Origin: Escherichia phage vB_EcoP-CC1
Length of the DNA: 44,532 bases
Strand: one strand, 5' to 3'
Sequence record: OX457022
Positions 1,448-43,742 of the stretch are shown piece after piece. The notes beneath the pieces were generated by a model, which saw only the letters and a list, made by a program, of their open reading frames with translations, did no database searches and was not told where the DNA came from. Made by a program: the position numbers and the translations under genes. Position 1 is the first letter of the stretch, and the number at the start of each line of letters is the position of its first letter.

Positions 1448-2447
1448 ACTTCGTAGCCTTTATAAAGACTCCGAGGTGCTTGATGCAATCGAGCAAGCTA
1501 CCGACGAGAAAGGTAATGTTAACTATAATGAGATGGCGAAGGTTCTATCTAGCCACCCTGTGGGTAAGAAGATCACCCGTCAACTTGCTCGCTACTGGCA
1601 TGGTCAATTCAAGAAGACCAAGAAGAATGGTGATTATTACCAGACTCTTCTGCAAGAGGATAAGCGTATCAAAGAAGAGCGTAAGCTCAGGACTCCTGAC
1701 CGCTACGAGGATTTGGCTATTGTACCATTGCCTGACTCGCCTCATCGAAGTGTACTGGTAATCCCTGATACTCATGCACCTTATGAGCACCCAGATACCT
1801 TAGAGTTCCTTGCAGCAGTGGCAGCACGTTATCGACCAGACACAGTGGTACATCTTGGAGATGAGGCAGATAAACATGCCCTGTCATTCCATGATTCGGA
1901 TCCAAATTTGGACAGTGCTGGCATGGAGTTAGAGAAGGCTCGTGTCTTCATGCACAAGTTGCACAAGATGTTCCCTGTGATGCGCCTGTGTCACTCTAAC
2001 CACGGATCTATGCATTTCCGTAAAGCGAGCGCCAAGGGTATTCCTGTGCAATACCTGCGTACCTATCGTGAAGTCTTCTTCCCGAATGGAGGTGGCGACC
2101 AGTGGGACTGGCAGCATACTCATGTGCTTGAGTTGCCGAATGGCGAACAGGTGGCATTCAAGCACCAACCTGCTGGTTCTGTCCTAGCAGATGCAGCGCA
2201 TGAGCGCATGAACCTAGTGTGTGGACATTTGCATGGTAAGATGTCGGTAGAGTATGCACGTAATACACATGAACAGTATTGGGCTGTGCAGGGTGGCTGT
2301 CTGATTGATGAGTCCTCTCGTGCATTTGCCTATGGTCGTGAGTCTAAATACAAGCCAGCATTAGGTTGTGTGGTTATTCTGGAAGGTGTGCCTCATATTG
2401 TCCCGATGCAGACCAATAGTGACAATCGCTGGATTGGTAAGATTTAG
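1416..2447 (+). CDS. calcineurin-like metallophosphoesterase
   Basis: Ordered signature motifs IPDTHAPY (DxH), HLGDEADKH (GDxxD), CHSNHGSMH (GNH-like), CGHLHGK; alternative GTG start at 1440 has AAGGAGG 7 nt upstream. Confidence 0.8.
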   Translation: MQERRRLRVAKLRSLYKDSEVLDAIEQATDEKGNVNYNEMAKVLSSHPVGKKITRQLARYWHGQFKKTKKNGDYYQTLLQEDKRIKEERKLRTPDRYEDLAIVPLPDSPHRSVLVIPDTHAPYEHPDTLEFLAAVAARYRPDTVVHLGDEADKHALSFHDSDPNLDSAGMELEKARVFMHKLHKMFPVMRLCHSNHGSMHFRKASAKGIPVQYLRTYREVFFPNGGGDQWDWQHTHVLELPNGEQVAFKHQPAGSVLADAAHERMNLVCGHLHGKMSVEYARNTHEQYWAVQGGCLIDESSRAFAYGRESKYKPALGCVVILEGVPHIVPMQTNSDNRWIGKI

Positions 2448-2463
2448 TTGACACTATAGAACA
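2442..2463 (+). promoter_or_regulatory. phage RNAP promoter, SP6-type variant (ATTTAGTTGACACTATAGAAC), +1 G at 2459
   Basis: Matches core GACACTATAG of the promoter family; -12 to -10 is GTT rather than the class I CTG/CCG. Confidence 0.6.
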
Positions 2464-2515
2464 AAGGGCAGGTAATGTCTTGCCCTTGATTGTATAGTGA
2501 ATGGAGGAATTAATT

Positions 2516-3001
2516 ATGTCAGAGACTGATATTAGAAAGATTGATATTGGAGAGTACGTCGTACGCCGTGCAGCTTACCGAGATGCCAACTGGAATAAAC
2601 TGTGTGAAAGACTAAACAAGAAACCAGATGAGGTATTCAAAGTATCCAGTGCAGAACCTAATTATAACTCTATCATGTTAGAAGGTGTTGAGAAGCGCGA
2701 ATGGTATGCGCCTTACTTCCATGTTGTTGACTCATTGCAAGGTGAAGAACCTAACACGTTGGACAACAATATGGTTACTAAGCCGAAGCACTATGAGTTC
2801 TTCGAAGGTGTAGAAGCGATTACTATCATTGCCCGCAGCATGACCGAGAAGCAATTCGCTGGCTATTGCATGGGTAATGCTTTGAAGTACCGCCTACGTG
2901 CAGGTAAGAAGTTCAACACTGAAGAAGACCTGAAGAAAGCAGACTACTATAAGGAGTTATTCCAGAAGCATCGTCACGAATGTATTGATGAGGATATTTG
3001 A
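2516..3001 (+). CDS. T7 gp1.7-like nucleotide (dNMP) kinase
   Basis: C-terminal half KPKHYEFFEGVEAITIIARSMTEKQFAGYCMGNALKYRLRAGKK...ADYYKELFQKH matches recalled C-terminus of T7 gene 1.7 protein; GGAGGA 8 nt upstream of ATG 2516. Confidence 0.55.
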   Translation: MSETDIRKIDIGEYVVRRAAYRDANWNKLCERLNKKPDEVFKVSSAEPNYNSIMLEGVEKREWYAPYFHVVDSLQGEEPNTLDNNMVTKPKHYEFFEGVEAITIIARSMTEKQFAGYCMGNALKYRLRAGKKFNTEEDLKKADYYKELFQKHRHECIDEDI

Positions 3002-3002
3002 T

Positions 3003-3950
3003 ATGAATATCTTTGAGTTCCTAGGTCTTCCAGAAGATCACCGCAACCACCCATTCATGTTGGTGAAACATCGTGGTGAAGTCCCTGAGAAGAAATTAAC
3101 CTTTCCATGTTATGCACAGGTGAAACGAGATGGAATATTCAGTGCTGTTGTGGTGCGTAATGATGGTGCTGTTGCCATCTTTGGTCGTACTGGTAAGAAG
3201 CTCGCAAATGTTGAAGCCTTGGAAAAGACATTTAGTGTATTTCCTGTCGGGTTGTATCTTGGTGAGTTGCAATCTATGGCTGTTGATGTTTATCTTGAAG
3301 CTCTATCAGGAGTGGTAAACCCTAATCGTACAGAGCCACTTGATTTCATAGGCCAGCAGATTAAAGACAACCTGTATATCGACTTCTTCGATATGTTAAC
3401 CATTAAGGCATTCCATGATGGATTCACTGATGTTTCTTATCTCAAACGTTACGATGCTTTACATCGTCGCATCGGCACTCATCTTAGCGGGTACAACGCT
3501 ATTCTTCCTATTACTCCTTGCCATAATGAGAGAGAGGTTGAAGCGTTTGCTCAAGAGCAAATAGATGCAGGCCGAGAGGGTGCTGTCTTTAAACTTGACT
3601 GTGATTATGAAGCAGGCCATAAAGGATATCGTCAGACTAAAGAAGTCCGTAAGGTAACTTATGACCTTACTTGTATTGGCTTTGAAGAAGGCAAAGGTAA
3701 GTACAAGGGTAAGGTAGCTAACCTCATTTTCAAATGGAAAGGAGGCAAGACAATCAAAGCTATGCTAGGTAAGGGGTGGACTCATGCAGATGCAGAACAG
3801 ATGTTCCATGATATTAAACATGGCGGACGATTGAATGTCATTGGTAAAATCTTTGAAGTCAAAGGTCTTCAGGATTCAAGCAAGGGCAACATTCGTCAGC
3901 CCAAAGCGGGAGAATTAAGACATGACAAAGATGAACCAGATTTCTTTTGA
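3003..3950 (+). CDS. ATP-dependent DNA ligase
   Basis: Adenylation motif KxDG present as VKRDGIFSAVV; ~315 aa; ORF track start 2985, likely start ATG 3003. Confidence 0.8.
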   Translation: MNIFEFLGLPEDHRNHPFMLVKHRGEVPEKKLTFPCYAQVKRDGIFSAVVVRNDGAVAIFGRTGKKLANVEALEKTFSVFPVGLYLGELQSMAVDVYLEALSGVVNPNRTEPLDFIGQQIKDNLYIDFFDMLTIKAFHDGFTDVSYLKRYDALHRRIGTHLSGYNAILPITPCHNEREVEAFAQEQIDAGREGAVFKLDCDYEAGHKGYRQTKEVRKVTYDLTCIGFEEGKGKYKGKVANLIFKWKGGKTIKAMLGKGWTHADAEQMFHDIKHGGRLNVIGKIFEVKGLQDSSKGNIRQPKAGELRHDKDEPDFF

Positions 3951-4137
3951 TAGTATGAAGGCGACTCGTGCTGTTGAGGTAGCAGAAGCTATCTTTGAAA
4001 CTTTATCTTGCGGCATGGAAGTGCCATATACTTTACTGGCTGATGCAGAAGAACTTGGTCTTTCTGTAGAAGCTATCCAAGAGAAAGTTGAGGAACTCTA
4101 TGGTACAGACGAAGAAGAAACCGACGATTTCATTTGA
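3922..4137 (+). CDS. hypothetical small acidic protein
   Basis: 71-codon ORF, GGGAGA 8 nt upstream of ATG; overlaps ligase 3' end; acidic C-terminus. Confidence 0.4.
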   Translation: MTKMNQISFDSMKATRAVEVAEAIFETLSCGMEVPYTLLADAEELGLSVEAIQEKVEELYGTDEEETDDFI

Positions 4138-4141
4138 GGGG

Positions 4142-7413: not shown

Positions 7414-7435
7414 ATTTACTGGACACTATAGAAGG
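7414..7435 (+). promoter_or_regulatory. phage RNAP promoter class I (ATTTACTGGACACTATAGAAGG), +1 G at 7431; capsid promoter
   Basis: Exact family consensus 55 nt upstream of capsid ATG. Confidence 0.85.
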
Positions 7436-7449
7436 GAGAAAACTCTCCC
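7434..7449 (+). promoter_or_regulatory. 5' leader stem-loop of capsid transcript (GGGAGA-AAAC-TCTCCC)
   Basis: 6-bp inverted repeat at transcript +4 to +19, followed by strong RBS TAAGGAGA; analogous to the T7 gene 10 leader hairpin. Confidence 0.5.
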
Positions 7450-8685: not shown

Positions 8686-8694
8686 TAACCTATG

Positions 8695-8730
8695 CCCTAT
8701 CTACCTTGCGTAGGTAGGGTTCTTTTGTTT
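8695..8730 (+). terminator. T-phi-like transcription terminator after capsid gene
   Basis: 10-bp stem CCCTATCTAC/GTAGGTAGGG (one G-U pair), loop CTTGC, then TTCTTTTGTTT. Confidence 0.7.
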
Positions 8731-12611: not shown

Positions 12612-15554
12612 ATGGCAATTGAACGTCAAGCTGTACAAGGACTAGAAAGAGTACAGTCAAGGGGCGCGCCAACACCTATGTCTTTCACACCACGACAAGT
12701 GAGTATCTCAGGGGGCGCGGATGCCTCCGGTAGTAGATTTTTGGAAGACTTAGTAAACGCTGCAAGTAGTGTGGCTGATGTCACTACTGCTATCCTTAAT
12801 CAGCAAGTAGAAGACGATAAGGTTCGCCAGATGGATAGGGCTTTATCTGGCATGATGCCTTCTGAGGATGCTACGGTAGGTGGTGCTCGTGCGCATATGC
12901 TGGTTAGTTTACAAAATGATGTAATCGCACAGACAACTGCGCTACAAGTAGAAGCACAGCGATTTCAAGGTAGTGACGAGGATTGGGAAAACTATGTAGT
13001 TCAATCTCGTAATGAGGTACAAAATAGGTTATGGCAAAGTTATCCAGAGCTTCGTGGTGACAAAGATTCTATGAGACTTGTCACTAACGCGTTCATGGAG
13101 CAGCAACCTAGAATTACTGCAACTAGAGCAGAGGCTAAACTTCGTCAAGAAGAAGAAGCACGAATGCAATCTATGCAGTCTCGTATTATCATGGCTACAC
13201 GGGACGTAGCGCCAGATGCCACTGGTGCAGCACTCATCCAGTTACAAAAAGAAGCACTGGCGATGGGTCTTAGTAAACCTGAGTTTGATCAGATGGTTGC
13301 TAAGATTGCATCTGACAGAGCGGCAGTAGGAGATGATAGTCTTATTCAGGGAACCAAAGCACTGGTGGATGATAAGGGTGTCTCTTTGTATGACCGTGTT
13401 GGTGCTTTGCAAACTGGAGAGATTCAAGCTAACAGAGCTTGGGCTGCGCAGAATCAGGTTGCCCTCTTTGAGAAGAAGGATGCAGCTATAAAGGCATTCG
13501 ATGCAGGGCAACTTACTCGTGAAGAGTTACTTCAGGTGATGCAGAATCACAATGAATTGACTGGTGGTACTGCTTGGTCTGATAGCGAGATCAAGGCTAT
13601 CTTCGATAGGCAAGCTAAGGCTAATGCAGAGAAAGCAAAGCTCGAAGATCTTATTGCACGAGGTGAATCTGGGTCGCCTTTAGGTTTACAGGATATTAGT
13701 AAGGATGACAGAAAATCCTATGCTGAAGCCTTAGTTAGTACCTACACTAAGTTGGCAGAAGATGAAATTGCCCGTACTGGTGCAACGGGAGAACAGGCTG
13801 AAGCTATTCGCGGTAGGTATGAGCAGATGCGTTATCTTAAATTAGGGCAACAACTTATTGAAGACCCAATCATTAAGGAAAGATATTCGTCGCTTATGCA
13901 ATTATCCTCTGCCAACCTTAAAGATATGAATGTTGAGCCTGAAGCATTACAGACCATCATGCGAGCGCGGGACTCTATTCCAGAGGATGCACGTCGTGCT
14001 GTCATGGGAGACAAAGAGTATGCCTTTGTAGAGAACTACGACCTAGCAACTCGCATGGGGTATAACGCAGGTCAAGCTATTGAGTTTGCACAGAATGCCT
14101 CTCGTGGAGAGAAGCTACAAGGTTCTGTACTTAAAGAACTGAATGATGATGTAGATGGAGTTGTAAGTGATGTGGCAGGAGGTAGTTGGCTTACTCGTGG
14201 CGATAATATGAGTGAGATGGGTCGTGACATTATGATGGAGGAGGCAAGTACAATTGCGAGAGCAATGAAGGTTGCAGGTCATAATAATGACACGATTAAA
14301 CGTCATCTTAAATCCTATTTGACGAGCCAGTATACACAGTTATCAGAGGGCTTCTTCACCCAAGGTGTTCTGGTGAAAGGTGATGTACGAACATTAGGTG
14401 ACACTATAGGAGTAAACCAGAATGACCTTCCTATGGCGCTACGTCAATATATGGATAACAACAAGCAAGCACTTCTTGATGCATCAGGTGGCTTAGAAGA
14501 GGGTGATTTGTATTTTGATGTAGATGCGCAGCGGGGACTCTTTACCATACGTGCAGGGTCTGGTCGTGTACCTGTTACGCAGGCAATGCCTTTGTCTGAA
14601 ATCAAAGGGCAGTCCTTGCTTAAGCAAAGATATGATGCAGAGGTTAAAGCCCGTGATGAGGGGCGTAAGAATTTTGAAGCACAGCAAATGAGGATGTGGG
14701 GCGCAGGTGGCTACCAAGCACAACCACCTGCAAAGACTACAGCCAAAACTGTAGGCTCCCGTGGGATTGCTGACTTCTTAATGTCACCTGCCTTTGCATC
14801 AGGCGAGAATCTACCAGCAAACTTTGAGTTTGGATATAAGAGGAATAATATGGACTTCTACAATTATGTAGCCAAGATGGAGAATAATGCCAATGTGGGC
14901 TTTGACCGAGTAGCTGGTGTTTATACACCATACAAAGATGCACATGGTCAATCTGTCGGGTACGGTCACTTCCTTACTACTGAAGAGAAGAAGAACGGAT
15001 ACATTATGATTGGTACAGAGAAAGTGCCATTCACTCCGGGACAATCTCAATTAACACCAGAACGAGCCATGCGCCTTCTACAGCAAGACTTGAAGAGTCA
15101 TGTGCCAAACACTTCAGGGTGGGCTGTTCCATTCGAAGAGATGCACCCAGGTGTTCAGCGTGGCCTTATGGACTTGTCCTATAATTTAGGCAAAGGAGGT
15201 ATCCAGAATGCACCTAAAGCCTATGTTGCGTTTAAGGCTGGCAAGTTTACTGATGGATTTATTGAGATGTTATCTACTGCATCTACTGAAGGTAAGCGTA
15301 GTACTGGGTTGTTGGTTCGTAGAGCAGAAGCATACAACCTTGCACAGAGTGGAGGTGCTATTCCTAAGATTAGTGAAGTAGAGACACGAGCCGATGGGTC
15401 TATGTATGTTAAGTTTGCAGGACAGATGTCAGAGGCTTTCGTAAATAAATCAATCTACAATCAGATTGGTAAGGATGGATGGCTGCAAGTGTACCCTCCA
15501 AAACAAGGTGTACTTGCACCTAACACCAAGATTGGTAGAATCAAACTAAGCTAG
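12612..15554 (+). CDS. internal virion protein with lysozyme-like (T4-lysozyme-type) domain
   Basis: 980 aa; residues ~760-900 contain YKDAHGQSVGYGHFLT, closely resembling T4 lysozyme YKDTEGYYTIGIGHLLT. Confidence 0.75.
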   Translation: MAIERQAVQGLERVQSRGAPTPMSFTPRQVSISGGADASGSRFLEDLVNAASSVADVTTAILNQQVEDDKVRQMDRALSGMMPSEDATVGGARAHMLVSLQNDVIAQTTALQVEAQRFQGSDEDWENYVVQSRNEVQNRLWQSYPELRGDKDSMRLVTNAFMEQQPRITATRAEAKLRQEEEARMQSMQSRIIMATRDVAPDATGAALIQLQKEALAMGLSKPEFDQMVAKIASDRAAVGDDSLIQGTKALVDDKGVSLYDRVGALQTGEIQANRAWAAQNQVALFEKKDAAIKAFDAGQLTREELLQVMQNHNELTGGTAWSDSEIKAIFDRQAKANAEKAKLEDLIARGESGSPLGLQDISKDDRKSYAEALVSTYTKLAEDEIARTGATGEQAEAIRGRYEQMRYLKLGQQLIEDPIIKERYSSLMQLSSANLKDMNVEPEALQTIMRARDSIPEDARRAVMGDKEYAFVENYDLATRMGYNAGQAIEFAQNASRGEKLQGSVLKELNDDVDGVVSDVAGGSWLTRGDNMSEMGRDIMMEEASTIARAMKVAGHNNDTIKRHLKSYLTSQYTQLSEGFFTQGVLVKGDVRTLGDTIGVNQNDLPMALRQYMDNNKQALLDASGGLEEGDLYFDVDAQRGLFTIRAGSGRVPVTQAMPLSEIKGQSLLKQRYDAEVKARDEGRKNFEAQQMRMWGAGGYQAQPPAKTTAKTVGSRGIADFLMSPAFASGENLPANFEFGYKRNNMDFYNYVAKMENNANVGFDRVAGVYTPYKDAHGQSVGYGHFLTTEEKKNGYIMIGTEKVPFTPGQSQLTPERAMRLLQQDLKSHVPNTSGWAVPFEEMHPGVQRGLMDLSYNLGKGGIQNAPKAYVAFKAGKFTDGFIEMLSTASTEGKRSTGLLVRRAEAYNLAQSGGAIPKISEVETRADGSMYVKFAGQMSEAFVNKSIYNQIGKDGWLQVYPPKQGVLAPNTKIGRIKLS
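14392..14413 (+). promoter_or_regulatory. promoter-like sequence inside coding region (CATTAGGTGACACTATAGGAG)
   Basis: Matches SP6-type consensus better than this phage's class I promoters; lies inside the 980-aa gene (codons GDTIGV); function unproven. Confidence 0.3.
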
Positions 15555-15570: not shown

Positions 15571-15588
15571 TGTCTCACATGTGAGACA
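15571..15588. repeat. 18-bp perfect palindrome TGTCTCACATGTGAGACA
   Basis: 16 nt after stop of 980-aa gene; member of palindrome family; flanked by AAGG...CCTT. Confidence 0.9.
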
Positions 15589-22400: not shown

Positions 22401-22508
22401 CTTCGTAGAGAAGAGCTGATGTGGTGGTGCATGAAGGCACAGAATGCTTGGATTGAATCTATTGAGGGGAGGCTGGCGAAATTAGAAGATAAACTCAAGG
22501 AGGTGTAA
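19422..22508 (+). CDS. tail fibre/tailspike with T7 gp17-like N-terminal attachment domain
   Basis: 1028 aa; position of T7 gene 17 and N-terminal region loosely resembles recalled gp17 attachment domain (no motif checked); C-terminal CDARLKTDARELTDAEKSAF resembles S74 intramolecular-chaperone motif; probable depolymerase body. Confidence 0.8.
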   Translation: MMSYTYTDHVANGSQVTFPFRFAGRDKAYISATDVQVGFVEAGTWLPATGWTLSGTNQITFLTPPTEGKQIRIRRIVDKINPYAYFERGNVLDINSLNNSFIKNLQVSQEILDGFFPEGFYFKTDLDMGGHKIINLHEGSESGDAVNYDQFKELSDRVNEIESDLTGLSHRTVPMYYIATGGESRWEIGHWTFDAAILFINGIFQNQNLGAFTISNNGFNFAEPLQKGDEVYALVGSRIAAPDEYVTISDLKDPDKAWRLIGRKYPFATDGTFMSKVVHDVDYSNIFIGASGLSQGFCIVDTPQGARMFFHQPIPSTNKVRFVETTFNPEGDNENPSVISFSQELDDIGHQTVCGVYEAGGVRLYTLSADEKSYYIIDWLGNNTSNAHMRKVQIPTEGIYSKDLFVSVGMSEDTKTLVFHATTNTQAFGNKDDARAIYLFDRKTLDSTSTRGLKRRFEVGAPAAPDMVFQGVACDDRFLYIYQGYNGVLLSHKISVFTLSGEHVRDIPVDSVRVKYGERMYGDETLGYPVLQEPEGLAMYKGKLYMLCMDFWYKNASVVTFAGRTFATRKSSAFSGYSPLQASYWTPTNLIPPTGAPEYNKTATYSCSNATKLSKAIVSLEIDDGTGFPASVGCSLPESSASVYLNNRAMNMAIGPNENFQFGVFHQNLQSYKNLLQLNRENPNTDGSAAVWRLFGGAFTDDIQNERFVQIKHRLNPTQDAMELRADVDLTSGGGINLYSMNDSASPGRVRLYCTDGYSYWSALLSPVSPSFHPDQDKTLNLGTANNRWNLVHCQGIRIISNDELQKQVFLETTRKKGALQISTSGNLGVWDSSAGTYVVATRPDGTGFSQVEMSFKGDVFPEINNTYNLGRENKAWANAYFQNAPTVVCDARLKTDARELTDAEKSAFLEISKLPAVWQWLAKLEVEGEDARLHSGCTVQAAISVMEKHGLDWTKYSAFCYDKWDAKEAVYDIVDGKAILVEEAVEAGDRYRLRREELMWWCMKAQNAWIESIEGRLAKLEDKLKEV

Positions 22509-22702: not shown

Positions 22703-22985
22703 ACATGCAGCCACAGAGGATGAAGTAGGCATCCTTCATGGCGCTATTACGAAGATGTTTAATAAGAAAGCACAGGCTATACTGGACACTATAGAAGAAG
22801 ACCCTGATTCTGCTATGCACTTAGTGTCAGGTAAGGATATTGGAGCCATGTGTAAGTGGGTTTTAGATAATGGCATTACTGCAACCCCTGCTGCACAGCA
22901 GGAAGAATCTAAGTTGTCTAAGCGTCTCAAGGCTATCCGAGAGGCGTCCAGTGGTAAGATCATTCAGTTTACTAAGGAGGATTAA
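22686..22985 (+). CDS. terminase small subunit (gp18-like)
   Basis: 99 aa from ATG 22686 (GGAGGA upstream); immediately precedes terminase large subunit. Confidence 0.55.
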   Translation: MSVHNKHAATEDEVGILHGAITKMFNKKAQAILDTIEEDPDSAMHLVSGKDIGAMCKWVLDNGITATPAAQQEESKLSKRLKAIREASSGKIIQFTKED

Positions 22986-24881: not shown

Positions 24882-24903
24882 ATTTACTGGACACTATAGG
24901 AGG
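24882..24903 (+). promoter_or_regulatory. phage RNAP promoter class I (ATTTACTGGACACTATAGGAGG), +1 G at 24899
   Basis: Family consensus immediately after terminase stop. Confidence 0.8.
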
Positions 24904-24920
24904 AAGACCAAGAGAGTAAA

Positions 24921-27233: not shown

Positions 27234-27255
27234 ATTTACTGGACACTATAGAAGG
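27234..27255 (+). promoter_or_regulatory. phage RNAP promoter class I (ATTTACTGGACACTATAGAAGG), +1 G at 27251
   Basis: Family consensus 83 nt upstream of second tailspike ATG. Confidence 0.8.
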
Positions 27256-27333
27256 AGAGATAGTGCCGTTCATTTGAGCGGCCTATTACTAGCCAATCTT
27301 CATGGTGAGGGTTGGGAAGTAATAGGAGATAAC

Positions 27334-29475: not shown

Positions 29476-30092
29476 CTGAGGGAATCCGTCTTCGACGGGC
29501 AGGGCTGATGTACTCCTTGTACTAGCTTAGTAGTACACAAGGGCTGGCCTTTTGTTTTGCCATGTACTAGCAAGGTGGAACGCTGGAGAGCGCCTAGGAC
29601 GGCCTAGGGATGGGCTTAGTGGTGGACAAGGTGATTGCCTTAGTGAAGCCTCTTAGTGCATTCCTGAGGCCATTCAGGGCGTTTATGAGATATTGACAGG
29701 GTGTGCGTGGGTGGGCTATCTGTTCGTTTCGTTCACTCCGCTTGCGCTACGTTCACTCGCTCACGTGTACCTTAGGTTGTTCCTTGATGGATAGCTTAGG
29801 TTAGCCTTAGTGGACTACCTTAGTTATAACCTTAGTGCTTATCTTAGTAATAGCTTAGTAATGTACCTTAGTAAGTCTTAGTGTCTTCTCTTAGTGATTG
29901 CACATGCAAGCATGTAAGATGCCATTAGGTCGCGGTCGGTAGACCGCTAAAGAAAGAGAATAGTAATAAGATGCAGTAGGAGGAACACCAGAAACCTAGC
30001 CAACCTAACCTATCCTAGCTCTGTATCTATTGCTTTTCCTTAGTCTAACATGTGAGACAACCTAGATTTATCTTAGTGATGATAGCTTAGTG

Positions 30093-31275: not shown

Positions 31276-31389
31276 ATGGAAAAGCAATATAACTTTATCT
31301 TTTCAGACGGTGTGACCCTGAAGTGTTCCCTGCGTTTCGCACAGATTCGCGAGGAAGTGCTAGGAACTACATACAAACTATTTAGCTGA
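31276..31389 (+). CDS. hypothetical small protein (37 aa)
   Basis: Short ORF right after ocr; its 3' end contains promoter-like sequence at 31380. Confidence 0.25.
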   Translation: MEKQYNFIFSDGVTLKCSLRFAQIREEVLGTTYKLFS

Positions 31390-31401
31390 CACTATAAGAG
31401 A
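31380..31401 (+). promoter_or_regulatory. variant phage promoter-like sequence (ATTTAGCTGACACTATAAGAG)
   Basis: 16/17 match to SP6-type -17 to -1 but A at +1; upstream of RNAP gene. Confidence 0.4.
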
Positions 31402-31462
31402 GGGTTTAACAGGGCGCTCTTGCGAGAGTGCCCGATTAAATCAACTTAACGAGATATTAAAT

Positions 31463-31639: not shown

Positions 31640-31703
31640 TGAGCCTATAGCCTACTTAAGTGGGCTATGTGAACACCATTCATTAACTCAAAAGGTGACT
31701 ATT

Positions 31704-32627
31704 ATGACTACTGAAAACACCCTCCTGTCTGTTCGTGAAGCTGCAACCGCTGAGATCAAGCAACACTTAGACAATATCGGCACTTCTTACATCAAAGTTG
31801 GCGCTTGTCTTAATGAGTTACGCGGTGACTTTGAAGGTCAAAAAGACTTTTTGGCTTATGTAGAATCAGAATTTGGAATCAAGAAAGCACAATGTTACAA
31901 GCTGATGAGTGTAGCCCGTGTCTTTGAAGGCGATGATCGCTTTAAAGGCGTGGCGATGCGTGTAATGCTGGCACTTGTTCCTTTCGCTGATGAAAATATC
32001 ATCATGGAGAAAGCCGCAGAACTTGCCGCAGCGGGCAAGCTGGACACTAATGCCGTAAATGCCCTGATTGATCCTAAGAAAGAGACAAAGGCCGAGACGG
32101 TACAATCTAAGGCTGAGGCGGTAAAACCGCAGGAGAATGCGACTGAGGCCGCAGAAACTATGCAAGGACATGCGACCTTTGAGGATTTCATCTTAGAGAA
32201 GGCGAAAGAGGAATTACAAAGTGTGCCGCCAGTAAGTGAGTCGGGTAACGACGAATCCGCACCGTGGGAAGATGAAAGCAAGCCGGAAGCGCCAAAGGCC
32301 GCGCCACTGGATAACACGGCTAACACGGAGAACGCCGCTATGTCTGGCCTACTGGCACAAATTAAGGCACTGACTGAGCAATTACAGGCAGCTAACGACC
32401 GCATCGCCGCCCTAACCAGTGCACGGGAAGGTAAGAAAGCGGCTGCGCCTATGCTTCCGCAGTTTAAATCCTCTTGCTTCTACGCTCGCTTAGGCTTGAG
32501 CGCCGAGGAAGCAACGAAGAAAACAGCAGTGAATAAGGCACGCCGTGAACTGGTTAAACTAGGGTATGGTGAAGGTCATGAGGCATGGCCTTTGATCTCT
32601 GAGGCAGTAGAAGAATTAACTAAGTAA
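31704..32627 (+). CDS. hypothetical early protein (307 aa), Ala/Glu/Lys-rich C-terminal half
   Basis: ATG 31704 with AAAGG upstream (ORF track start is GTG 31695); occupies slot between ocr and RNAP; no kinase motifs recognised. Confidence 0.6.
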   Translation: MTTENTLLSVREAATAEIKQHLDNIGTSYIKVGACLNELRGDFEGQKDFLAYVESEFGIKKAQCYKLMSVARVFEGDDRFKGVAMRVMLALVPFADENIIMEKAAELAAAGKLDTNAVNALIDPKKETKAETVQSKAEAVKPQENATEAAETMQGHATFEDFILEKAKEELQSVPPVSESGNDESAPWEDESKPEAPKAAPLDNTANTENAAMSGLLAQIKALTEQLQAANDRIAALTSAREGKKAAAPMLPQFKSSCFYARLGLSAEEATKKTAVNKARRELVKLGYGEGHEAWPLISEAVEELTK

Positions 32628-32690: not shown

Positions 32691-35318
32691 ATGCAAGATC
32701 TACACGCTATTCAGCTTCAGCTTGAGGAAGAAATGTTTAACGGCGGTATTCGTCGCTTTGAAGCAGACCAACAACGCCAGATTGCATCAGGTAATGAATC
32801 CGATACGGCATGGAATCGTCGCCTGTTGTCGGAGCTTATCGCACCTATGGCGGAAGGTATTCAGGCTTATAAGGAAGCCTACGAAGGAAAGAAAGGACGC
32901 GCACCGCGTGCACTGGCCTTCATTAACTGCGTAGAGAACGAAGTGGCAGCATATATCACGATGAAGATCGTAATGGATATGCTTAACACAGATGTAACCT
33001 TGCAAGCCATAGCAATGAATGTAGCTGATCGCATCGAAGATCAAGTACGCTTCAGCAAGCTGGAAGGCCACGCCGCCAAATACTTTGAAAAAGTTAAGAA
33101 GTCACTCAAGGCAAGTAAGACTAAATCATATCGCCATGCGCACAACGTAGCGGTAGTGGCTGAGAAGTCAGTAGCTGACCGTGACACTGATTTCTCCCGC
33201 TGGGAGGCGTGGCCTAAAGATACCTTACTGCAAATCGGTATGACCTTGCTAGAAATACTGGAGAATAGCGTATTCTTCAATGGTCAACCTGTCTTCCTCC
33301 GCACCTTGCGCACTAATGGTGGCAAGCATGGTGTTTACTACTTACAGACCAGTGAGCACGTAGGGGAGTGGGTTACAGCATTTAAAGAACATGTAGCGCA
33401 ACTTAGTCCGGCCTATGCACCTTGCGTCATTCCTCCGCGCCCTTGGGTGTCCCCTTTTAATGGTGGGTTTCATACTGAGAAGGTGGCAAGTCGCATCCGT
33501 TTGGTAAAAGGCAACCGTGAGCACGTCCGTAAGCTGACCAAAAAGCAAATGCCAGCAGTTTATAAGGCTGTTAATGCTTTACAGGCCACTAAGTGGCAAG
33601 TTAACAAAGAAGTTTTGCAGGTAGTAGAAGACGTTATCCGTCTCGACCTTGGTTATGGTGTACCTTCCTTTAAACCACTCATCGACCGCGAGAACAAGCC
33701 GGCTAACCCAGTGCCGTTAGAATTTCAACACTTGCGAGGCCGCGAACTGAAGGAAATGTTAACGCCGGAACAATGGCAAGCCTTCATCAACTGGAAAGGT
33801 GAATGCACCAAGCTGTATACCGCTGAGACTAAGCGCGGAAGTAAGTCGGCGGCAACCGTTCGCATGGTAGGACAAGCGCGCAAATACAGCCAGTTTGATG
33901 CGATTTATTTCGTGTATGCACTGGATAGCCGCTCACGCGTTTATGCGCAATCTAGCACACTCTCACCGCAATCAAACGACCTAGGCAAGGCGTTACTGCG
34001 TTTTACCGAAGGGCAGCCGCTAAATAGCTCTGAGGCGCTTAAATGGTTTTTGGTGAACGGGGCGAATAACTGGGGTTGGGATAAGAAGACTTTCGACGTG
34101 CGCACCGCTAACGTACTGGACGGCGAGTTTCAAGATATGTGCCGCGACATTGCAGCGGATCCTCTGACCTTTACTCAATGGGTAAATGCCGATTCACCTT
34201 ATGGATTCCTTGCATGGTGCTTTGAGTATGCTCGTTATTTGGATGCACTGGATGAAGGAACACAAGATCAGTTTGTGACGCATTTACCTGTTCATCAAGA
34301 TGGTAGCTGTTCTGGCATCCAGCACTACAGTGCTATGCTACGCGACGAAGTGGGTGCGAAGGCGGTAAACCTTAAACCATCCGACTCGCCTCAAGATATT
34401 TATGGAGCGGTTGCGCAGGTTGTTATCCAGAAGAACTACGCCTACATGAATGCAGATGATACAGAAACTTTCACATCTGGAAGCGTAACACTTACAGGTG
34501 CAGAACTGCGCAGCATGGCTAACGCGTGGGATATGATTGGGATCACTCGCGGCTTAACCAAAAAGCCAGTAATGACCTTGCCATACGGCTCCACCCGCTT
34601 AACCTGCCGTGAATCGGTGATTGATTATATCGTTGATTTGGAAGAAAAAGAGGCGCAGAGAGCTGTTGCCGAAGGGCGGACGGCTAATCCTGTGCACCCT
34701 TTTGATAATGACCGTAAAGACTATCTGACACCTGGTGCAGCTTACAACTATATGACCGCTTTAATTTGGCCTTCTATCTCTGAGGTTGTTAAAGCGCCTA
34801 TAGTGGCGATGAAAATGATTCGCCAGCTTGCACGATTCGCAGCTAAAAGAAACGAAGGGTTAGAGTACACCTTACCCACTGGTTTCATCTTGCAGCAAAA
34901 GATAATGGCTACCGACATGCTACGCGTATCCACTTGCTTGATGGGTGAAATCAAGATGAGTCTACAGATTGAGACTGATGTAGTGGATGAAACGGCAATG
35001 ATGGGCGCTGCCGCTCCTAACTTTGTTCACGGTCATGATGCGAGTCACCTTATTCTGACTGTATGTGACCTAGTTGACAAAGGTATTACATCAATTGCAG
35101 TTATTCATGACTCTTTCGGAACTCATGCAGGCCGTACATCAGATCTTCGTGATAGCTTAAGGGCAGAAATGGTTAAGATGTATCAAGGGCGTAACGCCTT
35201 GCAGCAATTGCTGGATGAGCATGAAGAACGTTGGTTGGTGGACACTGGCATTCAAGTGCCGGAACAAGGGGAGTTTAACCTTGAAGAGATATTAGTTTCT
35301 GACTATTGTTTTGCATAA
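32691..35318 (+). CDS. single-subunit DNA-directed RNA polymerase (SP6-type)
   Basis: 875 aa; N-terminus [32 protein letters not shown] and C-terminus ending DYCFA agree with recalled SP6 RNAP; AGGAG RBS. Confidence 0.95.
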
Positions 35319-35325: not shown

Positions 35326-35357
35326 AGGCCATTCCTTAGGGAGTGGCCTTTTCTTTT
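35326..35357 (+). terminator. intrinsic (rho-independent-type) terminator after RNAP gene
   Basis: Stem AGGCCATTCC/GGAGTGGCCT (one G-U), loop TTAG, then TTTTCTTTT; candidate early terminator. Confidence 0.7.
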
Positions 35358-35391: not shown

Positions 35392-35409
35392 TGTCTCACG
35401 CGTGAGACT
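35392..35409. repeat. palindrome family member TGTCTCAC-GC-GTGAGACT
   Basis: Perfect 16-bp palindrome GTCTCACGCGTGAGAC; 2 nt upstream of promoter at 35411. Confidence 0.85.
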
Positions 35410-35410
35410 T

Positions 35411-35432
35411 ATTTACCGGACACTATAGGATA
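35411..35432 (+). promoter_or_regulatory. phage RNAP promoter class I (ATTTACCGGACACTATAGGAT), +1 G at 35428
   Basis: Family consensus with C at -11. Confidence 0.8.
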
Positions 35433-35463
35433 ACCGTCGGAGACGGAAAGAGAAGGGAAGATA

Positions 35464-35572: not shown

Positions 35573-35590
35573 TGTCTCACATGTGAGACT
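35573..35590. repeat. palindrome family member TGTCTCAC-AT-GTGAGACT
   Basis: 4 nt upstream of promoter-like sequence at 35595. Confidence 0.85.
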
Positions 35591-35594: not shown

Positions 35595-35616
35595 ATTTAC
35601 CGGACAGTATAGATAA
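35595..35616 (+). promoter_or_regulatory. variant phage promoter (ATTTACCGGACAGTATAGATAAG), +1 G at 35612
   Basis: C to G change at -5 relative to family consensus; directly upstream of gp1.1-like gene. Confidence 0.45.
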
Positions 35617-35642
35617 GACTAACTTACTTTGGAGATTTAACC

Positions 35643-35774: not shown

Positions 35775-37763
35775 ATGGCTATTATTCAGAACGTACCGTG
35801 CCCTGCCTGCCAAAAGAATGGACACGATAAATCCGGCAACCATCTTATGATATTTGAGGATGGCGCTGGTTACTGTAACCGTGGTCATTTCCATGATAAT
35901 GGCAAACCTTATTACCATAAGCCAGAGGGCGGCATCGAGATAACCGAATTGCCCATTACTGGCAATATCAAATACACACCTTCTCAATTCAAAGAAATGG
36001 AGAAGGAAGGGAAGATAAGCGACCCTAAGCTACGCGCCATCGCACTTGGTGGTATGCGTATGAAAGACCGTTGGGAGGTCATGAATGAGCAAGAAAGGGC
36101 AGACCAAGAAGCAGAGTGGAAACTTGATGTTGAATGGTTCCTCACGCTTAAGCGTAAGAACCTTGTTTCCCGACACATTCGCGGCGACATTTGCGCATTG
36201 TATGATGTACGTGTCGGACACGATGAAGAGGGTAGAGTCTCGCGGCATTACTATCCACGCTTCGAGAAAGGTGAGCTAGTAGGAGCTAAGTGTCGCACAT
36301 TACCTAAAGACTTTAAGTTTGGTCATTTAGGTAAACTCTTTGGTATGCAAGATCTTTTCGGGATGAATACTTTGTCTCACGTGTTAGACAAGGGAAGACG
36401 AAAGGATTGCTTGCTTATTGTTGGTGGGGAACTGGATGCGCTAGCAGCGCAGCAGATGCTCCTTGATTCTGCCAAGGGTACTAAGTGGGAAGGTCAACCT
36501 TACCATGTATGGTCTGTTAACAAAGGGGAGTCTTGCCTTGAAGAGATTGTGCAGAACCGTGAACACATCGCCCAATTCAAGAAGATTATTTGGGGCTTCG
36601 ATGGGGATGAGGTAGGGCAGAAGCAGAACCAGCAAGCGGCTCGCCTGTTCCCTGGCAAATCTTATATCCTTGAATACCCCTCTGGTTGCAAAGATGCCAA
36701 CAAGGCATTGATGGCTGGTAAAGCCAAAGAATTTGTGGATGCTTGGTTTAATGCAAAGTCATCTGATGAAGTCTTTGGTAGCCAGATTAAATCTATCGCA
36801 TCTCAAAGGGATAAGCTCAAGGCTGCACGTCCAGAACAAGGGCTGTCATGGCCTTGGCCTAAGCTAAACAAGGTAACACTGGGTATCCGTAAGAACCAGC
36901 TTATCATTATAGGTGCAGGCTCTGGTGTTGGTAAGACAGAGTTCCTCCGTGAAGTGGTAAAGCATCTCATCGAAGAACACGGTGAATCTGTAGGTATCAT
37001 TTCTACAGAAGACCCGATGGTCAAAGTGTCCCGTGCTTTTATCGGTAAGTGGATTGATAAGCGTATTGAACTACCGCCAACCAATGACCCGAAAGAAGAT
37101 GGCTACCGTGAGGTGTTCGACTATACAGAGGAAGAGGCTAATGCTGCCATTGATTATGTAGCTGATACAGGGAAGCTGTTTGTAGCTGACCTAGAGGGTG
37201 ACTATTCGATGGAGAAGGTAGAGCAAACTTGCCTAGAGTTTGAGGCTATGGGTATTTCTAATATCATCATTGATAACTTAACGGGGATTAAATTAGATGA
37301 GCGTGCTTTTGGTGGGAAGGTTGGTGCACTTGATGAATGCGTCAAACGAATTGGTACTATCAAAGACCGACATGCGGTTACGATTTTCCTTGTCTCTCAC
37401 CTTACACGCCCTCCGGCAAACCGTACCCAACACGAAGAAGGTGGCGAAGTTATCCTTTCTGACTTCCGAGGCTCAGGCGCTATCGGATTCTGGGCATCTT
37501 ACGCCTTGGGGATTGAGCGTAATACAAGAGCTGAAACGCTTGATGAACGGACTACCACGTACATCTCATGTGTCAAAGACCGCGACCAAGGTATCTACAC
37601 TGGAACCAAGGTCATGCTTAAGGGTGACATTCAAACCGGACGTTTAATGGAACCACAAGCCCGTACTAAGTCATTTGATACAGGTGAAGCAAGGCAACAA
37701 GAAGTACCTGATTTACCGGACACTATAGAAGAGACAACCTTTGACGATGAACAGGAGTTTTGA
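35775..37763 (+). CDS. DNA primase/helicase (T7 gp4-like)
   Basis: N-terminal zinc-binding CPACQKNG...GYCNRGHFHD, central primase-type region, helicase Walker A GAGSGVGKT; acidic C-terminus DDEQEF. Confidence 0.9.
   Translation: MAIIQNVPCPACQKNGHDKSGNHLMIFEDGAGYCNRGHFHDNGKPYYHKPEGGIEITELPITGNIKYTPSQFKEMEKEGKISDPKLRAIALGGMRMKDRWEVMNEQERADQEAEWKLDVEWFLTLKRKNLVSRHIRGDICALYDVRVGHDEEGRVSRHYYPRFEKGELVGAKCRTLPKDFKFGHLGKLFGMQDLFGMNTLSHVLDKGRRKDCLLIVGGELDALAAQQMLLDSAKGTKWEGQPYHVWSVNKGESCLEEIVQNREHIAQFKKIIWGFDGDEVGQKQNQQAARLFPGKSYILEYPSGCKDANKALMAGKAKEFVDAWFNAKSSDEVFGSQIKSIASQRDKLKAARPEQGLSWPWPKLNKVTLGIRKNQLIIIGAGSGVGKTEFLREVVKHLIEEHGESVGIISTEDPMVKVSRAFIGKWIDKRIELPPTNDPKEDGYREVFDYTEEEANAAIDYVADTGKLFVADLEGDYSMEKVEQTCLEFEAMGISNIIIDNLTGIKLDERAFGGKVGALDECVKRIGTIKDRHAVTIFLVSHLTRPPANRTQHEEGGEVILSDFRGSGAIGFWASYALGIERNTRAETLDERTTTYISCVKDRDQGIYTGTKVMLKGDIQTGRLMEPQARTKSFDTGEARQQEVPDLPDTIEETTFDDEQEF
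37711..37732 (+). promoter_or_regulatory. phage RNAP promoter class I embedded in primase/helicase 3' end (ATTTACCGGACACTATAGAAGAG), +1 G at 37728
   Basis: Exact consensus inside coding sequence (encodes DLPDTIEET). Confidence 0.7.
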
Positions 37764-37940: not shown

Positions 37941-37958
37941 TGTCTCACATGTGAGACA
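37941..37958. repeat. 18-bp perfect palindrome TGTCTCACATGTGAGACA
   Basis: 17 nt after stop of small ORF; identical to copy at 15571. Confidence 0.9.
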
Positions 37959-37996: not shown

Positions 37997-38719
37997 ATGT
38001 ATAAATTAGTATTGAATGCAGGTGATTATGTTCGTAACATCAATGAAGCCTCACGTCGTTATCGTTGCCGTGGTGTGGTTAGCTATGTAAGTGAGAACAT
38101 GTACCATGTGGAGTACAGCAACGGCATTAAACAATCTTATCATAAGAAGTTAGCACATAACTACCTTGAGAAGATTGGCGAGACAAGCAATCAATGCAAG
38201 TGTGTACATGATGAGGTTTGCGATAAGTGCAAACGTCAGGCAATTAAAGCCTTTACCTTTGCGCAACGTTATGGTTCTATGTATGGTGCTGGTCACAAGA
38301 CCGTTGCAGAAGCAGCTTGGAAGACATTACAGTTTGAGCATTCAAATGGACGACGCACCACAATTAAGAAAGAGCGCCGCAATGTCATCACTGGTAAGAC
38401 TCAAAGTGAGATGATTAAGCAATGTGGCACTGCATTAGGTGTTACACAGTTCAATACACGTGCTCTAGGTAAATCTACAGGACAAGCTATGTTTAAGATT
38501 GGTGAAGCCATGATGCACCCAAATGTACCTGTGCGAATCATGGATGTTGACCATGCAATCACAGAACATGGTACAACACGGCGTGTAGTTAATAATCATT
38601 TTGCCGACACTATAGAAGATATTATCCGTAAGCAAGGATTGAAAGGTCTTCACATCTTAAATGGTGAAGAGTTGCTGTACCTTCCTATTGTTACCGAAGA
38701 AACCTACGTGAATATCTAA
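37997..38719 (+). CDS. hypothetical protein (240 aa) with Cys cluster
   Basis: GGAGA RBS 6 nt upstream of ATG 37997; CKCVHDEVCDKC cluster; between primase and DNA polymerase. Confidence 0.55.
   Translation: MYKLVLNAGDYVRNINEASRRYRCRGVVSYVSENMYHVEYSNGIKQSYHKKLAHNYLEKIGETSNQCKCVHDEVCDKCKRQAIKAFTFAQRYGSMYGAGHKTVAEAAWKTLQFEHSNGRRTTIKKERRNVITGKTQSEMIKQCGTALGVTQFNTRALGKSTGQAMFKIGEAMMHPNVPVRIMDVDHAITEHGTTRRVVNNHFADTIEDIIRKQGLKGLHILNGEELLYLPIVTEETYVNI
38588..38609 (+). promoter_or_regulatory. weak promoter-like sequence inside coding region (ATTTTGCCGACACTATAGAAG)
   Basis: Core CACTATAGAAG intact but 3 mismatches at -13, -12, -10; probably non-functional. Confidence 0.2.
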
Positions 38720-39153: not shown

Positions 39154-39171
39154 TGTCTCACGTGTGAGACA
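39154..39171. repeat. palindrome family member TGTCTCAC-GT-GTGAGACA
   Basis: 17 nt after preceding stop; flanked by AAGGG...CCTTT. Confidence 0.9.
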
Positions 39172-41842: not shown

Positions 41843-42026
41843 TGGATAGATTAGATATTGTTTGCTTGTTCTTTACCTTCTTTCTTGTCTTTCTTATGCT
41901 TGCTTGTTATGGAAGTATTCAGGTAAATATACCTGATGAAGAGGAAGGATACGACTGAGTTATACTCAAGGTCACTTACGAGTGGCCTTTATGAATAACT
42001 TACTCCTACTTATTTTGTCTAACATG

Positions 42027-42048
42027 ATTTACTGGACACTATAGAAGG
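42027..42048 (+). promoter_or_regulatory. phage RNAP promoter class I (ATTTACTGGACACTATAGAAGG), +1 G at 42044
   Basis: Exact consensus downstream of DNA polymerase gene. Confidence 0.85.
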
Positions 42049-42103
42049 AAAGCCTAGGTAATCTAGGTTTATAAGGTAGTATAGGTAATTAAGTAAATAT
42101 AGG
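42046..42103. repeat. periodic AGG array (AGG at 42046, 42056, 42065, 42074, 42083, 42101)
   Basis: AT-rich TAGG/TAAGG units at 9-10 bp period in leader of 125-aa gene. Confidence 0.8.
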
Positions 42104-42113
42104 AGATATAAAT

Positions 42114-42491
42114 ATGTCTATGGTAACTACTCTGGTATTCGTAGCTCAATACTTTCGTGGCCTGGCTAATAAGTTTAAACAGAAAGCAATCTTTGCAATT
42201 CAAGAACGTATTAATAAAATTGAAGAAGAACAAGTAGATGTAGAGGAACATCGTAGTTCTCAGATGATTGACCTGCATAATCGTCTGTACAAAGATCGTG
42301 ATGAGATGCGTCACCGTCATGCGAAGGAAGTTGAAGACATGCTTAACCGCCATGCGGAAGAACAAGCTAAGTTGGAAACCACTTTCCATGAGGATAAACG
42401 TAGCATCGCTCTAGCACATCAAGCTGCATCGGATAGCCTGAAGAAAGAGATTGTTATGCTGGAGATTGAGTTAGACAATCTTACCAAATAA
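42114..42491 (+). CDS. hypothetical coiled-coil protein (125 aa)
   Basis: RBS TAGGAGA; charged heptad-like sequence through most of the length. Confidence 0.55.
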   Translation: MSMVTTLVFVAQYFRGLANKFKQKAIFAIQERINKIEEEQVDVEEHRSSQMIDLHNRLYKDRDEMRHRHAKEVEDMLNRHAEEQAKLETTFHEDKRSIALAHQAASDSLKKEIVMLEIELDNLTK

Positions 42492-42511
42492 TTACTGGAC
42501 ACTATAGAACA
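42490..42511 (+). promoter_or_regulatory. phage RNAP promoter (AATTACTGGACACTATAGAAC), +1 G at 42507
   Basis: One mismatch from class I consensus (A for T at -16); overlaps stop codon of preceding gene. Confidence 0.7.
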
Positions 42512-42653
42512 ATAGGTCGGCTTAGTTCGGCCTATGATTGTAAAGTGTTGAACCTTATTGTGCATCTTGCACAACCCGATACCGTATCGGGCTTTCTAGT
42601 GAGTACATGCTTGTGCTCAGTACAAAGCTAACTGACAATAGGAGACTAAATAA

Positions 42654-43460
42654 ATGGCACGTGGTGATTTTGATTTTGGTGCTCAAGTTACTAAAGCTGA
42701 AGGTAAAGTATTTAAGAACCCAGAAGTAGGTGATCATGAAGCAGTTATCTCTGGCATCATTCATGTTGGTTCCTTCCAAGACATCTTTAAGAAAGGTAAT
42801 ACCACTGAAGTTAAGAAGCCAGCAAACTTTGTTCTGGTTAAGATTATCCTGATGGGTGACGATGACAAGAACGAAGATGATTCTCGCATGGAACAATGGA
42901 TGGCTGTGCCTCTGAAGTCTGGTGATAAGGCAACACTGACTAAGTTCCTGAATGCAGTTGACCCTAAAGAATTGCTTGGTGGCTTCGATGACTTCATTGG
43001 TGAATGCCTGACTGCAACCATGGTTGGCTCTGGTGATAAGAATGACGATGGCTCATTCAAGTATGTTAACTGGAAGGGCTTTGGTGGTATGCCGGAAAAG
43101 CTGAAGAAACTTGTAATTGCTCAGGTTGAAGAAGAAGGTCTGTCTATGACAGGTCACATTACCTTTGACAAGCTGACCAAAGAAATCCTTGATGATATTC
43201 CTGCTAACTTGGTACGCCAATACTTCCTGAATGAAACACCTCGTGGTAAGAACCTGTCTGTTGCTGGTTCTCACGTAGAAGAAATCATTAAAGCTGCTCG
43301 TGAAGAAGACCCAGAATGGAAGAAGGCTAAGAAGAAAGATGATGAGGATGCTACTCCAGCTAATCGTAAGTCTCTGGATACTGGCGAGTCTGTTCCGCAG
43401 GAAGTGCCTGAAGCAGAAGACGCACCTGCACCGGAAATGGATGAAGACGCGGAATACTAA
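42654..43460 (+). CDS. hypothetical protein, possible ssDNA-binding protein (gp2.5-like by features)
   Basis: 268 aa in replication module; acidic C-terminal tail ending in aromatic residue (EMDEDAEY) like the T7 gp2.5 tail; RBS TAGGAGA. Confidence 0.5.
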   Translation: MARGDFDFGAQVTKAEGKVFKNPEVGDHEAVISGIIHVGSFQDIFKKGNTTEVKKPANFVLVKIILMGDDDKNEDDSRMEQWMAVPLKSGDKATLTKFLNAVDPKELLGGFDDFIGECLTATMVGSGDKNDDGSFKYVNWKGFGGMPEKLKKLVIAQVEEEGLSMTGHITFDKLTKEILDDIPANLVRQYFLNETPRGKNLSVAGSHVEEIIKAAREEDPEWKKAKKKDDEDATPANRKSLDTGESVPQEVPEAEDAPAPEMDEDAEY

Positions 43461-43469
43461 GGAGGGATG

Positions 43470-43688
43470 ATGAAGGTACAAATCGTAACCCTGCACTGCA
43501 AGAAGGGCATTACAACCCTTGGCGGAAACACTTTTCACTCCTTCTCTGAAGGGGAGACATATTCTGACCTGCACTACATCTGGCGCGATGGGCAGCACGT
43601 GGTGAACTACAGCGACCCCGCTACAGGGAAACGCCACGGCGTATCTCTTCCGGCGCACGACATTGCTCAGGTGAACACAGTTTTATAA
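43470..43688 (+). CDS. hypothetical protein (73 aa)
   Basis: Strong RBS TAAGGAGGG. Confidence 0.5.
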   Translation: MKVQIVTLHCKKGITTLGGNTFHSFSEGETYSDLHYIWRDGQHVVNYSDPATGKRHGVSLPAHDIAQVNTVL

Positions 43689-43689
43689 A

Positions 43690-43705
43690 GTCTCACATGT
43701 GAGAC
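43690..43705. repeat. palindrome family member GTCTCAC-AT-GTGAGAC
   Basis: Starts 2 nt after preceding stop; 15 nt upstream of promoter 43721. Confidence 0.85.
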
Positions 43706-43720
43706 AAATCGGTGTCCAGT

Positions 43721-43742
43721 ATTTACTGGACACTATAGAAGA
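43721..43742 (+). promoter_or_regulatory. phage RNAP promoter class I (ATTTACTGGACACTATAGAAGAG), +1 G at 43738
   Basis: Exact consensus 55 nt upstream of 122-aa gene. Confidence 0.85.

Follow-up and report, generated by a model that had tools for sequence, protein, structure and literature searches.

Fourteen predicted promoters of the K1-5/K1E subtype in the genome of Escherichia phage vB_EcoP-CC1

The genome record of Escherichia phage vB_EcoP-CC1 (OX457022; 44,532 nucleotides, analysed over its full length and called the window below) contains a family of 14 related 23-bp sites, all on the + strand. With a probability of roughly 0.9 we read them as promoters of the phage's own RNA polymerase, belonging to the K1-5/K1E (Vectrevirus) subtype of the SP6-like family, an assignment that draws on sequence comparison. 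An earlier sequence-only reading of this DNA had listed eight of the sites and proposed that the phage has its own consensus, distinct from SP6 at positions -12 to -10. Genome scans show that the consensus indeed differs from that of SP6 here (CTG/CCG against GGT), but it is shared genus-wide with K1-5 and K1E and is not peculiar to this phage. The finding holds but is an ordinary one: the K1-5/K1E promoter type has already been published and exploited, and is not new.

The sites were detected by a pattern search with ATTTACYGGACACTATAGRA on both strands of the window, using 100 dinucleotide-preserving shuffles as a control. The pattern is found exactly at seven positions (7414, 24882, 27234, 35411, 37711, 42027 and 43721), and allowing up to three mismatches gives 13 matches, on the + strand only, where the shuffles lead one to expect 0. 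The motif of the sequence-only reading, ATTTAC[T/C]GGACACTATAG[A/G]A, fits seven sites exactly and 42490 with one base off (AATTA for ATTTA), so that its eight near-identical sites are borne out. A scan with the core GACACTATAG (-9 to +1) adds site 14392 to the family; the members beyond the first eight are 2442, 14392, 22777, 31380, 35595 and 38598. The core is exact in 12 of the 14 sites and has one mismatch in the other two, and each site is preceded by ATTTA or a close variant of it.

A genome-wide weight-matrix scan, which the earlier reading had proposed as a check, gives the same picture. The matrix was built from the 14 sites and run on both strands, and its scores are therefore circular: the sites reach 22.8-35.9 bits, the next best position on either strand 11.4 bits. 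The maximum over 20 shuffled genomes is 18.5 bits, against 22.8 for the weakest accepted site. Despite the circular matrix, the gap between the 14 sites and the background is very wide. Four one-mismatch core matches (16316 and 16583, and 39581 and 34815 on the minus strand) fell under the 8-bit reporting floor of the matrix and were rejected. All promoter sites lie outside the duplicated ends of the window (1-127 and 44406-44532), and none is counted twice. A search of Rfam at gathering thresholds found no match anywhere in the window.

Ten of the 14 sites are intergenic, with a predicted start 31-215 nt ahead of the next gene; three (37711, 38598 and 22777) are situated within the 3' part of the gene before them, and 14392 stands within the internal virion protein gene, 1.2 kb from the next gene start (Table 1). 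It might be argued that such repeats are another type of phage signal, involved in packaging, replication or RNA processing, given that the sites are known in the window from sequence alone and that the tandem pair after the polymerase gene recalls the position of the primary replication origin in T7. We consider this very improbable: the sites match the experimentally defined SP6 promoter at 17-20 of 21 bases, all of them point the same way as the genes, most at the short upstream distances just given, and a polymerase 98% identical to that of the window transcribes from the same sequence in vitro.

Table 1. Predicted promoter sites, polymerase features and palindromes (window coordinates; bits from the circular weight matrix; counterparts given as position and triplet at -12 to -10)
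Feature	Coordinates	Strand	Description	Bits	Window triplet	K1-5	SP6
Predicted promoter, variant	2442..2464	+	ATTTAGTTGACACTATAGAACAA; start 57 nt before nucleotide-kinase-like gene	31.4	GTT	17755 GTT	17428 AGT
Predicted promoter	7414..7436	+	ATTTACTGGACACTATAGAAGGG; start 55 nt before major capsid gene	35.0	CTG	22852 CTG	22413 GGT
SP6-flavoured promoter-like site	14392..14414	+	CATTAGGTGACACTATAGGAGTA; CATTA upstream; in internal virion protein gene	22.8	GGT		
Predicted promoter, variant	22777..22799	+	CTATACTGGACACTATAGAAGAA; CTATA upstream; in small terminase gene, 191 nt before large terminase gene	31.2	CTG	35488 CTG	none
Predicted promoter	24882..24904	+	ATTTACTGGACACTATAGGAGGA; directly 3' of large terminase gene	34.4	CTG	37593 CTG	37773 GGG
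Predicted promoter	27234..27256	+	ATTTACTGGACACTATAGAAGGA; start 83 nt before tailspike-like gene	35.4	CTG	39265 CTG	39910 GGT
Promoter-like site	31380..31402	+	ATTTAGCTGACACTATAAGAGAG; A at +1; ahead of genes preceding polymerase gene; K1E counterpart 2779 (GCT)	28.0	GCT	2014 GCT	2104 TGT
Predicted promoter	35411..35433	+	ATTTACCGGACACTATAGGATAA; first of tandem pair just 3' of polymerase gene	32.2	CCG	6020 CCG	6118 AGG
Predicted promoter, variant	35595..35617	+	ATTTACCGGACAGTATAGATAAG; GACAGTATA; start 31 nt before next gene	26.1	CCG	6204 CCG (also same G at -5)	6287 CGT
Predicted promoter	37711..37733	+	ATTTACCGGACACTATAGAAGAG; in 3' end of primase/helicase gene	35.6	CCG	8320 CCG	8411 GGT
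Predicted promoter, variant	38598..38620	+	ATTTTGCCGACACTATAGAAGAT; ATTTT; in 3' end of gp10-like gene	26.6	GCC	9010 GCC	9112 CGT
Predicted promoter	42027..42049	+	ATTTACTGGACACTATAGAAGGA; intergenic	35.4	CTG	12580 CTG	12542 GGT
Predicted promoter	42490..42512	+	AATTACTGGACACTATAGAACAA; intergenic	32.1	CTG	13352 CTA	13005 GGT
Predicted promoter	43721..43743	+	ATTTACTGGACACTATAGAAGAG; intergenic	35.9	CTG	14590 CTG	14286 GGG
Single-subunit RNA polymerase gene	32691..35318	+	875 aa; 100% identical to annotated OX638290 RNA polymerase				
Specificity-loop coding region	34902..34988	+	residues 738-766; aligned to T7 739-770				
Ser747 codon	34929..34931	+	aligned to T7 Asn748; Arg in SP6-type enzymes				
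Palindrome copy	15572-15587						
Palindrome copy	30043-30058						
Palindrome copy	35393-35408						
Palindrome copy	35574-35589						
Palindrome copy	36374-36389						
Palindrome copy	37942-37957						
Palindrome copy	39155-39170						
Palindrome copy	43690-43705						

The reference genomes of K1-5, K1E and SP6 were scanned in the same way as the window. Correspondence was judged by order and flanking genes (flanks were aligned for three sites only), and on this basis 13 of the 14 window sites have counterparts in K1-5/K1E. The scan consensus of K1-5 and K1E is ATTTACTGGACACTATAGAAG, the same as in the window. For SP6, whose promoter is ATTTAGGTGACACTATAG, the scan gives AtTTAGGTGACACTATAGAAG, so the SP6 consensus used in the sequence-only reading was right. 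At all 12 positions in common with SP6 the base at -11 is T or C in the window and G in SP6. Overall T or C is found there in 13 of the 14 window sites, the sole exception being 14392 (GGT). Because -12 and -10 vary within both genomes, -11 is the clean clade discriminator.

The polymerase of the window shows amino acid identities of 97% to K1-5 and K1E, 85.6% to SP6 and 34% to T7. It had been described as nearly identical to SP6 RNA polymerase, which overstates the likeness, as there are 27 clade-fixed differences. The accompanying prediction of a few changes in the specificity loop proved accurate: three clade-fixed differences fall in the equivalent of T7 739-770, namely D742/E, S747/R and E753/D (Vectrevirus/SP6-type). 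In the alignment over the loop K1-5 is identical to the window and SP6 differs at these three residues. Of the three, only S747/R is non-conservative, and it falls on the T7 N748 position. T7 numbering was carried over by alignment, in which the stretch R746-Q758 (R-L-N-L-M-F-L-G-Q-F-R-L-Q in T7) is gap-free and anchored by conserved Arg and Gly. T7 R746, N748, R756 and Q758 are given as base-contacting residues in PMC11880802; at these positions the window polymerase has R/S/K/S and SP6 has R/R/K/S. Measured against a strict SP6 type, with G at -11 and an Arg polymerase, the window departs on both counts: only one of the 14 sites has G there, and residue 747 is Ser. GKKGRAP, the AT-rich loop, is shared by the window polymerase and SP6, which fits the ATTTA upstream element that they have in common. 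Among solved structures the best match is T7 RNA polymerase (E = 2e-112), and the others are mitochondrial enzymes.

To extend the comparison, viral contigs were scanned with the window and SP6 polymerases, and the two scans gave 27 distinct loci. Ser is present at the T7 N748 position in 12 of 12 Vectrevirus-type polymerases and Arg in all seven SP6-type enzymes examined. The 12 Vectrevirus-type enzymes (window, K1-5, K1E and nine IMG/VR relatives) share one identical loop; one loop is likewise shared by the seven SP6-type enzymes with the same core promoter, four of which are about 85% identical to both references. In the 12 Vectrevirus-type genomes and contigs the triplets at -12 to -10 are CTG (37), CCG (18), GCT (10), GCC (7), GTT (4) and a few others. 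The seven SP6-type genomes have GGT (21), GGG (12), TGT (7), CGT (6) and GGA (5), and none of their 56 promoter sites carries T or C at -11. More distant SP6-like clades have the promoters ATTTGTGTTGCACTATAG (loop ...DVFMS), AATTAGAGACCACTATAG (loop ...DIRMS), AATTAGGGGCTACTATAG, AATTAGGGCGGACTATAG (loop VVKT...EMS) and TAATAGTGGCGAGTATAG (loop ...MINMY). Since these clades each have their own promoter and loop, loop and promoter change together across the subfamily generally.

By analogy with T7, the polymerase would bind -17 to -5 as duplex DNA, with its AT-rich loop in the minor groove at ATTTA (-17 to -13) and its specificity hairpin entering the major groove around -12 to -7. TATA (-4 to -1) would melt and synthesis would begin at the +1 G, rightward into the gene block behind each site. 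The subtype would differ from SP6 chiefly at -11 (T/C against G), going with Ser747 against Arg in the hairpin. In T7, Asn748 reads -11/-10, and replacing it with Asp converts the enzyme to T3 specificity; T7 N748 against T3 D749 is reported by Raskin et al. (1992-93) and Cheetham et al. (1999) to decide specificity at -12 to -10. By this parallel we infer that Ser747 against Arg may be the causal determinant of the difference at -11, and that Ser747 would loosen base reading rather than strictly re-target it.

The difference at -12 to -10 could also be tolerated drift, in which case the polymerase would barely read these bases and CTG/CCG would be a historical accident. Within -17 to +1 the three positions carry the lowest information of the element in the window (1.37, 0.81 and 0.91 bits), and GTT, GCT, GCC and GGT variants coexist there. 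The activity of a related polymerase on SP6-type promoters, and the occurrence of such promoters ahead of real genes (both described below), point the same way. Nonetheless, drift would be expected to give mixtures and not a clean switch between T/C and G at 12 separate positions, nor does it sit well with the complete lack of T or C at -11 in the SP6-type genomes. Moreover, the switch coincides with a charge-changing substitution at the residue that reads -11/-10 in T7 and T3. The parallel change at 12 separate promoter positions therefore argues for selection by a trans-acting reader, and drift seems rather unlikely.

Alternatively, the clade preference might be set outside the hairpin and not by Ser747, for example in the N-terminal domain or in the region aligned to T7 232-240. 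Of the 27 clade-fixed differences, 24 are found outside the hairpin, including a cluster at polymerase residues 205-214 (T7 232-240). In addition, the three K1E/SP6 loop residues grafted into T7 did not by themselves transfer specificity and gave no active pairs (PMC11880802). However, the AT-rich loop does not differ between the window polymerase and SP6, and S747/R is the sole non-conservative fixed change in the DNA-reading hairpin. It is also established for T7 that the hairpin at residues ~232-240 acts at the -5/-4 melting junction, not at -12 to -10. We consider a determinant outside the hairpin unlikely.

Several observations weigh against Ser747 as the determinant of the triplet, among them the low information content at -12 to -10 and the failed grafts mentioned above. 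The association of residue and base amounts to a single clade split, that is, one evolutionary event, and 26 other fixed polymerase differences are confounded with S747/R. None of the solved structures matched is that of an SP6-type polymerase, and the contact is taken from T7 at 34% identity. Some distant clades keep Arg and lack G at -11 (GAG in L027; GTG or CTG in L030 and L032). K1E-like and SP6-like enzymes also break the recognition rules derived from T7, according to PMC11880802. Finally, RNAP (RNA polymerase) No. 2049 reached a normalised signal of 3.5% with an SP6-type template, against about 2% with its CTG consensus and 0.18% with a template of the GAGAC type (PMC13029058). The first two of these templates are not identical at +6 either, and in the same assay activity moved several-fold when only +2 and +5 were changed. 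Discrimination at -12 to -10 may be weak, because this enzyme uses the SP6-type promoter about as well.

RNAP No. 2049 was characterised in vitro in a 2026 paper and transcribes from promoter 2049-6, TATTTACTGGACACTATAGGAGGA (PMC13029058). It is identical to the window polymerase at 856 of 874 residues, with the same loop between the R746 and R756 positions, including the Ser. The same paper lists the same 13-site family for its genome, including a GGT site in gp36 which is the equivalent of 14392. A loop that differs from SP6, together with the in vitro activity of a 98%-identical polymerase on promoters of this kind (PMC13029058), leaves the sequence-only reading standing on this point.

Perfect SP6-type promoters are seen ahead of real genes in some Vectrevirus-type genomes with a Ser polymerase: at 2709-2731 in contig L010 (ahead of an unidentified open reading frame near the tail-gene end of the contig) and at the nucleotide-kinase gene of the No. 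2049 genome. This suggests that the Ser enzyme tolerates GGT in vivo, and the evidence together is consistent with a Ser enzyme whose own triplet is preferred but not required. A further and tentative possibility is that the Arg-to-Ser change made the Vectrevirus polymerase permissive at -12 to -10, reading CTG/CCG as well as GGT, whereas the SP6 enzyme would insist on G at -11. If true, Vectrevirus genomes could, through this one-way compatibility, acquire modules of the SP6 lineage together with their promoters; candidate examples would be the internal virion protein gene with 14392 and the tailspike promoter in contig L010.

The promoter type and its polymerases are known from earlier work. 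PMC6412113 pairs K1E polymerase with a "K1E promoter" as an expression tool, and puts the identity of the K1E and K1.5 polymerases at 99% to one another and at 85% to that of SP6; both are in use as tools (PMC12400119). K1E and SP6 form separate clusters by the residues at T7 748/756/758 and promoter positions 6-10 (-12 to -8) in a 2025 study in Nucleic Acids Research (NAR; PMC11880802). Beyond annotation the finding matters little: the 14 sites give the phage a transcription map, where the public record names almost no genes and no promoters. The comparison does narrow the natural difference between SP6 and K1-5 down to the base at -11 and, as candidate residue, Ser747 against Arg; this combination might offer a compact basis for building mutually orthogonal polymerase/promoter pairs in the SP6 family.

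Some individual sites deserve a comment. The A in place of G at +1 of 31380 (TATAAGAG) is kept in K1-5, K1E and the No. 2049 genome; if this site is used, the polymerase gene would be transcribed by its own product. The nine bases 5' of 43721 (GTGTCCAGT) form an inverted repeat of its -13 to -5 (ACTGGACAC; window 43712-43733), and nearly the same arrangement is present in K1-5 and K1E (GTGTCCGGT). Site 14392 is the weakest member of the family and its function is doubtful. In the gene alignment it lines up with SP6 29393, and K1-5 and K1E are without such a site there. The internal virion protein gene around it (12612-15554) has 64-84% nucleotide identity to SP6 gp36 and mostly 44-62% to K1-5/K1E. 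The gene is a mosaic module that brought, or kept, the SP6-type internal site.

A second repeat family consists of the perfect 16-bp palindrome GTCTCAC-NN-GTGAGAC, of which the window has eight copies (against 0.15 expected) and K1-5 seven. SP6 and five other SP6-like clades have GTC[C/T]AAC-NN-GTTGGAC at the corresponding places; both half-sites therefore changed together in the Vectrevirus lineage. Three copies are located 2-15 nt upstream of the promoters 35411, 35595 and 43721. The form of the palindrome suggests an operator bound by a dimeric protein, or else a hairpin signal. A full-text search for the palindrome sequences found no paper in the literature collection covered, and a Pfam search for a binder among seven early/middle proteins gave no obvious DNA-binding domain, only DUF3310 in the nucleotide-kinase-like protein. 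Strong terminator-like GC hairpins with T runs are present on the + strand at 35326-35349, 8694-8720 and 44167-44194, directly after the genes for the polymerase, the major capsid protein and a gp18-like protein respectively, all as consensus matches only; the latter two are similar in sequence (GCCCT.TCT.CCTT...AGG.AGGGT).

Regarding the genome as a whole, the window corresponds in rotated form to the record of Escherichia phage vB_EcoP-CC2 (OX638290.1; Autographiviridae, Molineuxvirinae, Vectrevirus), being 100% identical and one base longer than a simple rotation. Positions 1-127 are identical to 44406-44532, and the 127-bp identical ends of OX638290 itself are collapsed at window 32398-32524. 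The 127-bp repeat is probably an overlap from circular assembly and not a true terminal repeat; the unique genome measures about 44.4 kb, and, judging from K1-5, the physical ends of the genome are expected near window 29,400. Most genes in OX638290 are unnamed. An open reading frame (ORF) on the + strand at 31695-32627 is 87% identical to K1-5 gp6, and OX638290 annotates a hypothetical minus-strand ORF there (31895-32404); to judge from this identity, the locus is probably mis-annotated. The gene at 19422-22508 encodes 1028 aa at the position of the 320-aa tail fibre adaptor of K1-5/SP6, and the right end has a single tailspike-like gene (27274-28857, 527 aa), against two in K1-5. In its receptor-binding module the window is thus unlike K1-5, K1E and SP6.

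Compared with known systems, the window is closest to K1-5/K1E, with which it shares the consensus ATTTAC[T/C]GGACACTATAGAAG, the site-specific variants in the same order and the specificity loop of a 97%-identical polymerase. Differences are the extra site 14392 and small base changes such as CTA at K1-5 13352 against CTG at 42490. For No. 2049, promoter 2049-6 contains all 23 bases of window site 24882; the polymerase has Gly for Ser at the T7 Q758 position (MG against MS), and the nucleotide-kinase promoter has GGT where the window has GTT. SP6 (Zindervirus) agrees with the window in promoter length, ATTTA at -17 to -13, the core at -9 to +1, the initiating GAAG, the placement of 12 promoters and the AT-rich loop of the polymerase. 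Its promoters differ by GGT, GGG or NGT at -12 to -10, with G at -11, and its 85.6%-identical polymerase has Arg at the T7 N748 position. A similar relationship is known from T7 and T3: here too, close polymerases differ at promoter positions -12 to -10 and at the same hairpin residue position. In the SP6-like pair, where the one published assay points to weak discrimination, the candidate residues are Ser and Arg in place of Asn and Asp.

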